IMG/VR virus record: IMGVR_UViG_3300012016_000039 | Span: 1-25,299 of that record | DNA: 25,299 nucleotides | Source of the DNA: a virus | Reading direction: 5' to 3' (one strand) | Shown here: positions 2,894 through 13,230 of the stretch, piece after piece | How the letters are laid out: every line of letters starts with the position of its first letter | How positions within the stretch are numbered: the stretch's first letter is position 1 | The notes under the pieces: model-generated | Databases searched by the model: none | Told to the model about the DNA's origin: nothing | What the model saw: only the letters and a program-made list of their open reading frames with translations | Position numbers and translations under genes: made by a program

Positions 2894-3343
2894 GTGCAAA
2901 ACATGGCACTTATTTTTTTGGTGGTTTTTATGGTAATGAAATGTGACGGTGATTGTTTTAACTGTAAATTTAAAGATTGTATTTTAGAATATGATGAGAT
3001 AGAGGCTTATGAGGAACTTGACGAATATGTATTAGATACTAATGACAGAAAGAAGCGCAAGGCAAACCGTTTATACCATAAAAGTAAAAAATACAAAGAA
3101 TACCAGCGCATATATCGTCGGAATTACTATAAAACACACAAATTATATTTTAAAGAATGGAAACATAAATACTATTTAAATAATCGTGAAAAGATATTAA
3201 AACAACAAAAAGAATATAGAGAAAAGCATCAAAAAGAAATAAGGGAGCGCCGCGAAATAAAAAAAACGCAGCGCCTTTTTAATACTTTAAAACCTATAGT
3301 GATGAAGCGAGTTGAAATGATAATGAACCTTGACAAAAATTAA
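2894..3343 (+). CDS. Hypothetical phage protein, Cys cluster (CDGDCFNCKFKDC) followed by a Lys/Arg/Tyr-rich region
   Basis: 149 aa ORF with SD AGGTGA before GTG; alternative start at ATG 2930. Confidence 0.55.
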   Translation: MQNMALIFLVVFMVMKCDGDCFNCKFKDCILEYDEIEAYEELDEYVLDTNDRKKRKANRLYHKSKKYKEYQRIYRRNYYKTHKLYFKEWKHKYYLNNREKILKQQKEYREKHQKEIRERREIKKTQRLFNTLKPIVMKRVEMIMNLDKN

Positions 3344-3363
3344 AAAAGAGGTACAATAGTAGC
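3330..3363 (+). repeat. Promoter repeat TTGACAAAAATTAAAAAAGAGGTACAATAGTAGC, copy 1
   Basis: Identical to 3570-3603; near-identical to 18950-18983 and 19212-19245; TTGACA-16-TA(C/T)AAT. Confidence 0.9.
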
Positions 3364-3445
3364 AGGACGGCACAGAAACGGCAAGTCCTAATTAATGAAG
3401 TTATTATGACCGCTTACTTACTGTACAAGAAGCGGTTACTTTTTT
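3361..3445 (+). ncRNA. sRNA S4, family A putative antitoxin (cognate of T3)
   Basis: AGCAGGAC...GTCCT 5' stem; ACCGCTT...AAGCGGT terminator plus T6. Confidence 0.7.
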
Positions 3446-3501
3446 GTAATCAGAAATATTAAAAGTAATATTAAGAATAATAAAACTAAATTCCAATTCA
3501 T
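3436..3501 (-). CDS. T3 small hydrophobic peptide, putative type I toxin (MNWNLVLLFLILLLIFLITKK, 21 aa)
   Basis: Manual translation; SD GGAGGTGA sequestered in CTCCAA-CA-TTGGAG; TATAAT at 3559-3564 (-). Confidence 0.75.
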   Translation of the reverse strand: MNWNLVLLFLILLLIFLITKK

Positions 3502-3569
3502 TCAATCACCTCCAATGTTGGAGAGTGACTAGCCGCTTCCGGACATCCTGCTCATTTAATTATAATTGC

Positions 3570-3603
3570 TTGACAAAAATTAAAAAAGAGGTACAATAGT
3601 AGC
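3570..3603 (+). repeat. Promoter repeat copy 2
   Basis: 34-nt exact direct repeat of 3330-3363. Confidence 0.9.
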
Positions 3604-3674
3604 GTGACCTGGGTATGGGTTCATATTTTCACTTTTAATATTACTACCGTGATTGAAGCACGGTAGATTTTTTT
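3601..3674 (+). ncRNA. sRNA S5, family B orphan (array unit 1)
   Basis: AGCGTGACCT...GGGTT 5' hairpin, ATATT/AATAT middle stem, CTACCGTG...CACGGTAG-AT7 terminator. Confidence 0.7.
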
Positions 3675-3694
3675 GAAAAATATGGTATAATAAT

Positions 3695-3774
3695 AGCGTG
3701 ATTCGTTTAACGGATCGTTATAAGTTTATATTTATCGTTATAACAACCGTGTTTGTGGCACGGTAGATTTTTTT
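3695..3774 (+). ncRNA. sRNA S6, family B orphan (array unit 2)
   Basis: TGGTATAAT at 3683-3691; GATTCG...CGGATC hairpin; GTTATA/TATAAC stem; ACCGTG...CACGGT terminator plus T7. Confidence 0.7.
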
Positions 3775-3795
3775 AGAATAATATGATATAATAAT

Positions 3796-3869
3796 AGCGT
3801 GACTCGGGAACGGGTTCATTATATTGTTACTATAATTACTACCGTGGTGTAAGCACGGTAGATTTTTTT
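3796..3869 (+). ncRNA. sRNA S7, family B putative antitoxin (array unit 3, cognate of T4)
   Basis: TGATATAAT upstream; same three-hairpin layout as S5 and S6; overlapped antisense by T4. Confidence 0.72.
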
Positions 3870-3944
3870 ATGAGTTCTAAAGAAACTCAGAATTTGTAAT
3901 ATCAATAAGATGATATTCAAAATTTGAATAATCTTATCTCTCAT
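3819..3944 (-). CDS. T4 small hydrophobic peptide, putative type I toxin (MRDKIIQILNIILLILQILSFFRTHKKIYRAYTTVVIIVTI, 41 aa)
   Basis: Internal ATG of track ORF 3819-4010 with SD AGGAGGGGTGA; promoter TTGATA(4048)-17-TATACT(4025). Confidence 0.78.
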   Translation of the reverse strand: MRDKIIQILNIILLILQILSFFRTHKKIYRAYTTVVIIVTI

Positions 3945-4051
3945 AATCACCCCTCCTTTCACTGACAGACCGTCAGATTTGAAGGAATGAACCCGTGCAA
4001 CCCAAATCACGCTAAAATTAGTATAGAGCGTTAATCAAAAACTATCAATTT

Positions 4052-6924: not shown

Positions 6925-7061
6925 TTCGGAAGATTCACCGCTTATTTCTTTTTATTCGTTTCCTTCATCATCCATTATTTTTTTTGTTTCCTTAATTTTC
7001 GTACGTTTTAATGGTGTGGTATAAAGCCACACCATACATATTTTATTTCAAGGGGAATAAT

Positions 7062-7847
7062 ATGAGCAATTCAATATTGCTTAACCAAAAAAAGCAAAAT
7101 TATGATGTTTTTCGATCGTTAGTTGATGGCTCAATTACTTCTATTGATATTCCATTTGGAACTCGTTCAATTAAAGGCATGGCGTTTTATAATTGTAAGT
7201 CAATTAAAAGTATAAAAATACCAAATACTGTGACGGCAATAAATGTGCAAGCATTTTATAATTGTGAATCACTTGCAACTATAGAAATACCTAATACTGT
7301 TACATCAATAGAAAACCGCGCATTTTATAATTGTAAGTCACTTACAAGTATAGAAATACCAAGCGGTATAACAGCATTAGAATACGCTATGTTCCAAGAT
7401 TGTATATCACTTACAAATGTAAAACTCCCAAGTTCTTTGACCACGATATGGGCTTCGGTGTTTGAGGGTTGTTCATCACTTACATCTATAGAAATTCCAA
7501 GTTCTGTCACATCAATAGAGGGTAGCGCATTTTCTGCTTGCACATCACTTACAAATATAGAACTTCCAAGTTCTTTAACAAAAATCGGACCTAATGCATT
7601 TTATTCTTGTGAATTATTTACAAGCATAGAAATTCCAAGTTCTGTTACATCAATAGATTATTGGGCATTTGACAAATGCACATCTTTATCAAGTGTCAAA
7701 GTACTAAACCCAACGCCACCTACCTTGGGTGCTGAGGCGTTTCATTCGACCTCAGCAAATTTAGTGATATATGTACCGGCCGAGAGCGTTTCAGCTTATC
7801 AAACAGCTTGGAGTGCTTATTCTTCTAAAATCCAAGCTATATCTTAA
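7062..7847 (+). CDS. BspA-family leucine-rich-repeat protein (LRR_5)
   Basis: About 8-9 repeats of IEIPxSVTSIxxxAFxxCxSLTS; capping motif PTPPTLG...IYVPAESVSAYQTAWS; ATG 7062 after GGGGA. Confidence 0.88.
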   Translation: MSNSILLNQKKQNYDVFRSLVDGSITSIDIPFGTRSIKGMAFYNCKSIKSIKIPNTVTAINVQAFYNCESLATIEIPNTVTSIENRAFYNCKSLTSIEIPSGITALEYAMFQDCISLTNVKLPSSLTTIWASVFEGCSSLTSIEIPSSVTSIEGSAFSACTSLTNIELPSSLTKIGPNAFYSCELFTSIEIPSSVTSIDYWAFDKCTSLSSVKVLNPTPPTLGAEAFHSTSANLVIYVPAESVSAYQTAWSAYSSKIQAIS

Positions 7848-11971: not shown

Positions 11972-12052
11972 GACACGGCTTTGAATGGGCCGCTATGATT
12001 ATTCTTTTATTATAATAATAACAACCACATCGGTAGTGTGGCTGTTATTTTT
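11972..12052 (+). ncRNA. sRNA S9, family B antitoxin-like RNA whose toxin gene is 5'-truncated
   Basis: TTGAAA(11941)-16-TGTAAT; GGCTT...GGGCC hairpin; AACAACCACA...TGTGGCTGTT terminator; antisense frame KEHKNNSHTTDVVVIIIIKE* matches the T10 C-terminus. Confidence 0.62.
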
Positions 12053-12149
12053 GTGCTCTTTTTCTGCATTCTTGCGATTGGCTGCGAAAGAATATGCGAC
12101 AAAACATGCTAAGACATCAAACGTTGACCAAAGATAGGAGACGCGCATT

Positions 12150-12977
12150 TTGGGGGAAAAACTTGTACGACCTATTCTAACGTGGGTAGGCGGGAAACGA
12201 CAACTTCTGAAAGAAATAGAGAAAAGACTACCAAAAATAATTTCCTATTATGTCGAGCCGTTTGTTGGTGGTGGTGCGGTCGTATTTGGCATGCAACCTC
12301 AATATGCACGAATCAACGATTATAACAAAGAGCTGATTAATGTATATAGGGTTGTCAGAGACAACCCAGATGCTTTAATAGAAGAACTCAAGAATCATGA
12401 AAAGAAAAATGACGAATCTGGTAGCGAATGGTTCTACTTTGTTCGAGGTATAGATAGAACGCCCGAGTTTAAAAATTTGTCAGATGTCAAGCGTGCTGCA
12501 CGCATGATTTACCTAAACAAGACTTGTTACAGCGGGAAGTTTAAAGTGAATTCTGCTGGACAGTTTAATAATTCATATGCTCGATATAAACATCCTAATA
12601 TTGTAAACGAAGTTGGCATTCGCGCACTGCATGGATATTTTTGCAATGCAAATATCGAAATGTGCGAGGGTGATTTTGCGGATTGCTTAATAGACCTACC
12701 TAAAGGGGCATTTGTGTATTTAGACCCGCCATATATGCATGCATATACTGGCTATACGCAATGCGGTTTCGGATACGACGAGCAAGTACGATTACGTGAT
12801 GAATGTGCCAAATTGCGTGAGCAGGGCATACATTTCTTGCAATCAAATAGTGACTGCGAAGAGATTCGAGAGCTATACAAGAGTTTCAAAATTGAAACAG
12901 TATATGCAAAACACTCTCTTGGCCCTGTGGTTAGTGACAGACGTGGCACAGTGAAGGAGGTGTTAATTAGTGGCTGA
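12150..12977 (+). CDS. dam: Dam-family DNA adenine (N6) methyltransferase
   Basis: WVGGKRQLL, YVEPFVGGGAV, YLNKTCYSG and VYLDPPY motifs; TTG start after AGGAG. Confidence 0.93.
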   Translation: MGEKLVRPILTWVGGKRQLLKEIEKRLPKIISYYVEPFVGGGAVVFGMQPQYARINDYNKELINVYRVVRDNPDALIEELKNHEKKNDESGSEWFYFVRGIDRTPEFKNLSDVKRAARMIYLNKTCYSGKFKVNSAGQFNNSYARYKHPNIVNEVGIRALHGYFCNANIEMCEGDFADCLIDLPKGAFVYLDPPYMHAYTGYTQCGFGYDEQVRLRDECAKLREQGIHFLQSNSDCEEIRELYKSFKIETVYAKHSLGPVVSDRRGTVKEVLISG

Positions 12978-13073: not shown

Positions 13074-13152
13074 AGCGCGCCTGTGGAGCACGGGTTCATT
13101 ACTAAATTTGTATTTTGATAATTACTACCGTGATTTGAGCACGGTAGTTTTT
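13074..13152 (+). ncRNA. sRNA S10, family B putative antitoxin (cognate of T6)
   Basis: 5' hairpin CCTGTG-GAG-CACGGG; CTACCGTG...CACGGTAG-T5 terminator. Confidence 0.72.
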
Positions 13153-13230
13153 ATGATGAGTTCTAAAGAAACTCAGAATTTGCAATATCAATAAAATGAT
13201 ATTCAATATTTGAATAATCTTATTACTCAT
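13102..13230 (-). CDS. T6 small hydrophobic peptide, putative type I toxin (MSNKIIQILNIILLILQILSFFRTHHKNYRAQITVVIIKIQI, 42 aa)
   Basis: Manual translation; SD AGGAGG; TATAAT at 13309-13314 (-); close paralog of T4. Confidence 0.78.
   Translation of the reverse strand: MSNKIIQILNIILLILQILSFFRTHHKNYRAQITVVIIKIQI

Follow-up and report, generated by a model that had tools for sequence, protein, structure and literature searches.

A tandem array of antisense RNA cassettes with a single toxin beside dnaB in a tailed phage, and a possible role in cross-immunity between sibling phages

What toxin-antitoxin systems do for phages and plasmids is debated; addiction, exclusion and defence have each been put forward. 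Arrays of orphan immunity genes occur in polymorphic toxin systems (CDI, Rhs and T6SS). Anti-addiction and competition models for toxin-antitoxin systems have been summarised (PMC12548467); chromosomal ccd versus the ccd of the F plasmid is cited there as an instance of anti-addiction antitoxins. Phage-borne orphan antidotes are known in protein systems (PMC11825919), and at the level of RNA the pseudo-ToxI of phage PhiTE is a mimic of a type III RNA antitoxin that neutralises a toxin encoded elsewhere (PMC3475682). Type I modules can be repeated in one intergenic region, as with ibs-sib, ldr-rdl and zorO-orzO of E. coli (PMC2887945), and a single antitoxin RNA, SR6, controls two toxins (yonT and yoyJ) of the SPbeta prophage (PMC6562991). 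In bsrG/SR4 the first contact is through the terminator loop of the antitoxin, and loop exchange lowers binding 10- to 100-fold, with compensatory change restoring it (PMC3834814). We found no description in the literature of toxin-less type I antisense antitoxin genes in arrays.

The DNA analysed here (25,299 nucleotides; ‘the window’ below) is a complete IMG/VR record of 25.3 kb representing a tailed phage fragment, with genes for ParA, DnaB, a DnaC/DnaD-like protein, and portal, major head and tape-measure proteins. ParA by itself points to a plasmid-prophage state; no integrase was seen among the genes of the window. A search with DnaB for the host gave only a 35% Flavobacterium match, and neither DnaB nor the portal protein had an exact-sequence match in the collection. 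A BspA-type leucine-rich-repeat protein is encoded at 7011-7847 among the head genes (Pfam LRR_5, E = 4e-62), and 69-nt tandem DNA repeats lie inside that gene (7185-7657).

The array occupies positions 3570-3870, beside dnaB. Its features, and those that adjoin it, are as follows.

3330-3560, complete module of a second (AGCAGGA) class: sRNA on the plus strand, 21-aa toxin on the minus strand (3436-3501); bounded by a duplicated 34-nt promoter
3570-3597, plus strand: S5 promoter (TTGACA, 16-nt spacer, TACAAT; promoter scan)
3601-3676, plus strand: S5, toxin-less sRNA cassette; AGCGTGA start, terminator hairpin 3644-3666 then T-run; covariance model score 82.1 bits
3659-3694, plus strand: inter-cassette junction 1; terminator 3' half, T-run and S6 extended -10 box (TATGG-TATAAT)
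3695-3777, plus strand: S6, toxin-less sRNA cassette; body matching sister genome G001 (30387-30460) at 73/74 positions, T4-type terminator tail
3759-3795, plus strand: inter-cassette junction 2; holds the S7 extended -10 box (TATGA-TATAAT)
3796-3871, plus strand: S7, sRNA cassette convergent with T4 and wholly antisense to the T4 3' end; covariance model score 83.5 bits
3819-3944, minus strand: T4 toxin ORF, 41 aa plus stop; hydrophobic N-terminal helix, then a basic stretch; Shine-Dalgarno (SD) sequence GGAGGGG at 3950-3956
3796-4013, minus strand: predicted T4 mRNA; 5' end AGCGTGA at 4013; fold -81.3 kcal/mol, z = -8.5
4020-4048, minus strand: T4 promoter (TTGATA, 17-nt spacer, TATACT), directly after the dnaB stop codon

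The three sRNA genes are arranged head-to-tail, with starts at 3601, 3695 and 3796 (spacings of 94 and 101 nt). TRF reported a period of 101 nt over 3639-3823 (1.8 copies, 82% matches), in agreement with the three tandem units of about 95-100 bp described in the initial annotation. The 15-mer CACGGTAGATTTTTT is found exactly at 3659, 3759 and 3854, and with up to three mismatches it has six matches in the window against 1.5 expected; the terminator tail is identical across S5, S6 and S7. A -10 box with AGCGTGA lies at 3592-3607, 3686-3701 and 3787-3802, and a consensus scan placed intrinsic-terminator-like hairpins with T-runs at 3644-3666, 3746-3764 and 3839-3861, all on the plus strand (four terminator-like sites in total, against 0.4 expected). 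A full -35/-10 promoter was returned by the consensus scan for S5 only. The promoters of S6 and S7 are extended -10 boxes (TATGnTATAAT) about 10 nt past the preceding T-run. As these boxes overlap the terminators upstream, the description of the units as self-contained fits S5 but applies to S6 and S7 in a looser sense.

Each sRNA is predicted to fold into a 5' hairpin and a terminator hairpin (-18.7 to -20.6 kcal/mol, z about -2.5), with the 5' hairpin differing between S5 and S7. The -10 box, AGCGTGA start, 5' hairpin and terminator that had been ascribed to every unit are therefore present in each, while the middle stem, also ascribed to all three, is predicted for S6 only. The loops do differ between units, as had been noted, with variation in the 5' loop, the linker and the terminator loop. 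Also as described, S7 is the only cassette that overlaps and converges with an intact ORF (T4). S5 and S6 have no toxin ORF opposite, and their antisense strands read as the toxin C-termini that the initial annotation had quoted, in-frame relics (KKIYRA...stop) that have neither start codon nor ribosome-binding site.

Directly upstream of the array, a 34-nt promoter segment is duplicated with 100% identity (3330-3363 and 3570-3603), one copy on either side of the AGCAGGA-class module. The sister genome G001 has a single promoter copy and no such module, and the arrangement in the window looks like a module insertion via recombination at the promoter.

The T4 ORF has its SD sequence 5 nt before the ATG, and its last 16 codons and stop fall inside S7. 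In the minimum-free-energy fold of the predicted mRNA (4013 to 3796) the first ∼25 nt pair with the last ∼25 nt, the 5' end (AGCGTGA) pairing with the antisense of the S7 5' end, and this 5'-3' helix closes a molecule in which the SD sequence is sequestered by pairing with UUCCUUC. The U-rich 5' end of the T4 mRNA (GAUUUGGGU) can, by means of G-U wobbles, also pair with sequence antisense to the 5' loop of either S7 or S5 (minus strand, 4013-3796 versus 4013-3601); in this model one toxin leader may tolerate several cassette types. Alignment of T4-type toxins from ten loci showed that the N-terminal 22 residues are invariant and that the tail is variable exactly at the sRNA overlap. The mRNA 5' ends of T4 and of T6 (the toxin at the same locus in G001) vary in step with the 5' end of the cassette beside them: T6 carries ACGGATCGTT, matching its neighbour S6', and T4 carries ACGGGTTCAT, matching S7. 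This covariation, together with the end-to-end fold, argues that the T4 mRNA 3' end lies at the adjacent cassette and not inside the orphans.

The elements expected of a type I system were thus seen in the sequence (a small ORF with an SD, a convergent sRNA with promoter and terminator, and an SD-sequestering fold), and by analogy T4/S7 would work like the 3'-overlapping type I systems of Firmicute prophages, with putative toxicity and neutralisation. [quoted passage not shown] Rfam RF01412 (BsrG) matched 3744-4016 on the minus strand at 22.8 bits (E = 0.1) and reached 31.1 bits at its best match in the window, both below the gathering threshold of 55, with RF01412 matches falling on the toxin strand. 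Pfam and NCBIfam profile searches with seven toxins gave nothing above cut-off; the PepG1 profile scored 14.5 bits against a cut-off of 70, and there was no Pfam match.

A covariance model of the cassette (R1), built from 15 units, contains two conserved helices with compensatory changes at 6 of 13 pairs, and scores S7, S5 and S6 at 83.5, 82.1 and 78.4 bits, respectively (E ∼1e-15 to 1e-16). Units of this class number 11 in the window and 16-19 per complete related phage genome (G001 and G002; 40.5 and 45.3 kb), and promoter-sRNA-terminator units face small hydrophobic ORFs at several other intergenic sites of the window. A survey of nine non-redundant contigs with nhmmer and an ORF script identified at least 15 loci in related phages where one or more orphans precede a cassette with a toxin, in arrays of two or three units. 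In some of the array-bearing phages the cassettes are only ∼70-80% identical to those of the window, and in some arrays a unit draws its -35 box (TTGATT) from the terminator before it. All 23 full-length unique orphans keep a -10 box with no more than one mismatch in six positions and a T-run of four or more, a count by which selection and youth are not separable, as the orphans could simply be young; toxin-linked units under the same scoring gave 40/40 for the -10 box and 82% for the T-run. Since the promoter lies outside the detection model, this test of orphan promoters is not circular. Eight of the 16 model hits in G001 are without a toxin.

The position of orphans within arrays (always on the sRNA-upstream side) was considered as evidence and dropped, as an array with a toxin-linked first cassette would not score as tandem.

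Several further arrangements were observed. A second tandem pair in the window (21876-22060, minus strand) has an orphan (∼21979-22060) upstream of a toxin-linked cassette (∼21876-21957) whose 42-aa toxin is on the plus strand, and the equivalent locus of G001 (12647-12930) consists of three cassettes. A toxin-less cassette at 267-350 abuts a module at 371-600, its terminator supplying the -35 box of the next unit, and another at 11973-12055 stands isolated just before a DNA methyltransferase gene. Cassettes are packed very densely in the window, G001 and G002, often flush with the stop codons of neighbouring genes, and no ordinary intergenic terminators were seen within the stretch scanned. 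Two elements of G001 are decay intermediates: a full cassette at 37854-37927 (L027:2289-2362) facing a toxin ORF that has no N-terminal part, and a cassette at 1511-1542 reduced to its terminator half.

The search that gave 16-19 cassettes in G001 and G002 found, with the same model, no cassette in the nearest named phages, which share at most 47% portal identity and are woodrat or human faeces phages or Acutalibacter phages. A nucleotide search with a 761-nt region had no match among GenBank phages and PLSDB plasmids, and an alignment-derived pattern for the T4-type toxin family gave 586 pattern matches in 185,579 species genomes, with 0 confirmed.

Three sets of records carry a DnaB 99% identical to that of the window, and flanking sequence (dnaB, parA and orf149) is 98.0-99.3% identical at the nucleotide level between the window and G001 and L013, the two compared. 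The window has S5-S6-S7 with T4 at the dnaB locus, G001 (a complete genome with terminal repeats) has S5'-S7'-S6' with T6, and L010, L011, L013 and L097 have S5''-S7'' with T4. In this comparison, of a kind that the initial annotation had proposed, unit number and order therefore differ across sister phages at the same locus, and the terminal toxin varies too, despite near-identical flanks. T6 is an intact 42-aa toxin of another family, and its tail is still legible antisense to S6 of the window. S6 matches the toxin-linked cassette of G001 (30387-30460) at 73 of 74 positions, up to the terminator 3' half, where it switches to a T4-type tail; judged by this switch S6 is a recombinant, a chimera with a body from another toxin family and a terminator tail of the T4 type. 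Conversely, the middle orphan of G001 (30482) matches the toxin-linked S7 at 68/74 positions in the window and at 69/74 in L010.

A similar exchange of positions is seen at a second locus, where the toxin-linked terminal cassette of L013 (9288-9364) corresponds to an internal orphan in G001 (36112; 75/77). There the toxin N-terminal body of G001 is the one seen in L013 but is fused to another terminal cassette, and G001 is without the orphan found in L013. The second-locus array begins with a bare half-terminator (loop GTGCTAG, 3' stem and T-run; ∼36190-36215 in G001 and ∼9485-9510 in L013) joined directly to the end of a methyltransferase-like ORF, and this looks like the scar of an older cassette. 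S5-type cassettes were found solely as orphans, in four records and in the same orphan context (exact 24-mer search). The expectation that matching toxins would exist elsewhere was thus borne out for S6, and for S5 no partner was found in viral and metagenome collections searched with an exact 24-mer of the S5 body.

Variation within the close clade is confined to the 5' hairpin loop, the linker and the 7-nt terminator loop, which occur in different combinations, while the blocks AGCGTG, ACGGGTTCAT, ATTACTACCGTG and CACGGTAGATTTTTTT and the stems are invariant. Read on the other strand, the linker is the toxin tail and stop codon. Because the terminator loop contacts first in bsrG/SR4, the variable loops are plausible specificity determinants by analogy. 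Between S5 and its G001 orthologue 8 of 106 positions differ, all in two loops, against a flank divergence of 1-1.7%; these differences would be very unlikely by chance if independent and only suggestive if counted as two conversion patches, and they could reflect two or three gene-conversion patches and not selection.

Predicted duplex energies were calculated for each sRNA with the 3' region of each toxin mRNA, providing in silico the toxin-by-sRNA matrix that had been proposed, and in it the cognate pairs stand apart (-136 to -169 kcal/mol). S7 with T4 gave -136 kcal/mol, and S6 with T6 of G001 gave -121.7 kcal/mol, against -137.5 for the cognate pair. With T4, S5 and S6 gave only -82 and -68 kcal/mol, values like that of S7 with the toxin of an unrelated complete module (13105-13230; -76 kcal/mol). 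From these duplexes, which lie in the range of unrelated paralogues, and from the alignment, we rejected the idea that S5 and S6 are gene-dosage duplicates of S7 acting as extra antitoxin copies on T4.

We believe that these observations may be explained by S5 and S6 being retained antitoxins that give cross-immunity to toxin variants of relatives, in an array built by cassette recombination, and we put the probability of this at roughly one in two. The array would comprise three independently promoted antisense sRNA genes of ∼75-80 nt, each cassette being a swappable specificity module with the antitoxin RNA on one strand and the toxin C-terminal tail, stop and mRNA 3' end on the other. S7 would be the cis antitoxin of T4, pairing over its whole length with the T4 mRNA 3' end from complementary hairpin loops; by analogy, pairing would lead to decay by RNase III and keep the ribosome-binding site closed. 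S5 and S6 would be antitoxins with no toxin in cis. Growth and shuffling of the array would proceed by recombination at a conserved junction of ∼40-45 nt (terminator 3' stem, T-run, extended -10 box and AGCGTGA), a segment that could give homology for unequal crossover and gene conversion. Translated in the toxin frame this junction gives K-K-I-Y-R, which puts all cassettes in register with the T4 body. Each time a new cassette or toxin end is placed beside a toxin body, the previous antitoxin would be retained upstream, and the patterns at both the dnaB locus and the second locus appear to fit such a succession. Older antitoxins would then be kept because the toxin variants that they match are still produced by sibling phages (or phage-plasmids) of the shared host population, and as spares they would provide cross-immunity (anti-addiction or anti-exclusion) against those variants. 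If, as we infer, the array RNAs are transcribed and neutralise peptides that are toxic, to the selective benefit of the phage, the match of S6 to a sister-phage toxin suggests RNA-based cross-immunity between competing phages.

We counted in favour of cross-immunity the reciprocal matches between orphan and toxin-linked cassettes, the mosaics among sisters, the separation of duplex energies and the intact orphan signals. Counted against it were the sub-threshold BsrG scores, the lack of a Pfam or NCBIfam match, the occurrence of S5-types only as orphans, the possible youth of the orphans and the conversion patches. The initial annotation had read the array as a library of antitoxins with different specificities, and most of the checks it proposed, carried out in silico, favoured that view; this is upheld in so far as S6 is matched by a G001 toxin and the orphans keep their signals, and weakened in that S5 has no partner and the arrays could equally be leftovers of module replacement.

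Such leftovers would be functionless by-products of turnover, young relics heading for deletion, the old antitoxin at first not being losable while old toxin mRNA or sibling copies persist. The succession at two loci is what turnover would produce, the conserved junction eases unequal crossover, and orphans can evidently be lost, as at the second locus of G001; the truncated cassettes and the truncated toxin with its sRNA kept in that genome (1511-1542 and 37854) also agree with it, as does the failure of the exact 24-mer search to find a partner for S5. We nevertheless regard it as somewhat unlikely, given that promoter and terminator are kept in every one of the 23 orphans, that S5 is kept in all four sister records though its loops change, that distantly related phages also have arrays of two or three cassettes, and that spare sRNA genes use scarce genome space (half of the model hits in the 40.5-kb G001).

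Two further possibilities were weighed. In one, the orphans act in cis on a T4 transcript reading across S6 and S5, three sRNAs being perfectly antisense to one long transcript and setting its 3' end and decay, or shielding upstream genes from antisense read-through. The consensus scan found no terminator-like site on the minus strand from 4100 to 3200, so read-through into S6 and S5 is possible, and in the predicted fold of a 413-nt read-through RNA the T4 5' end pairs with sequence antisense to the start of S5. Against this, the covariation of toxin 5' ends extends to the adjacent cassette only, single-cassette modules of the same family share the layout, cleavage far downstream of the stop codon is unnecessary for silencing the ORF, and the matches of orphans to sister-phage toxins are left unexplained; we consider a cis role improbable. 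We give similarly little credence to the orphans being reserve cassettes for specificity switching, whereby deletion of S7 through unequal crossover would fuse the toxin to the tail of S6 or S5 and change lock and key in one step. The in-frame KKIYRA...stop relics in S5 and S6, the same toxin body with different tails in sister phages, and the presence in L013 of a T4-family toxin with the terminator loop type of S6 (ATN) all speak for such a reserve, but S6 comes from another toxin family and its 5' end mismatches the fold-back partner in T4, no direct case of such a switch was found, and the derivative would lose immunity rather than gain it.

Cross-immunity by retained antitoxins might also form part of something broader, although we think this rather unlikely: the cassette arrays would be an RNA-level lock-and-key diversification system of a phage (or phage-plasmid) clade, engaged in a kissing-loop arms race of addiction and anti-addiction. 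Cassettes of ∼95 nt would be installed, shuffled and deleted at the conserved in-frame junction, and a phage would thereby change the antitoxin controlling its own toxin while stockpiling antitoxins against the variants of competitors.

Should the spare RNAs prove active, the array would be the first instance that we have found in which orphan type I antitoxins are retained as a repertoire of immunity, and cross-immunity, if true, would carry the concepts of anti-addiction and orphan immunity beyond proteins to antisense RNAs. The competition model of Cooper and Heinemann, as summarised in PMC12548467, could then be tested directly on defined sibling phages. The array family would moreover be a natural set of closely related sRNA/mRNA pairs with differences only in loops and linker, suited to measuring how antisense specificity is encoded.

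[quoted passage not shown] In bsrG/SR4-type systems, as predicted for T4, the SD is sequestered in the toxin mRNA and the antitoxin terminator loop is likely the first contact (PMC3834814, PMC6562991). The array differs from them in the length of its RNAs (∼75 nt versus 180 nt), in the placement of the antitoxin terminator inside the toxin coding region, in its sub-threshold Rfam scores with no toxin homology, and in having several tandem antitoxin genes with different loops per toxin. Repetition is also seen in ibs-sib, ldr-rdl and zorO-orzO, where a toxin is present in every repeat, whereas in the window array it is present only in the last. SR6 shares with the array an antitoxin:toxin ratio that departs from one-to-one, with one RNA for two toxins in the former and three RNAs for one toxin in the latter.

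The pseudo-ToxI of PhiTE is likewise a set of phage-borne, repeated RNA antitoxin units with no toxin, in which recombination or slippage alters the number of repeats and a toxin-bearing element can be the source of captured units (PMC3475682). It is a type III system, whose RNA acts by binding to the toxin protein and whose repeats are released by processing of a single transcript, whereas the array would be type I, with a promoter and terminator for each unit and specificity segments that differ. Orphan-immunity and anti-addiction systems share with the array the presence of antidotes that have no toxin in cis and whose cognates are found in relatives, and the gain proposed for them is also in competition between related elements. 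Their antidotes, however, are proteins, whereas those of the array would be RNAs, with toxin tail and antidote lying on opposite strands of the same DNA.
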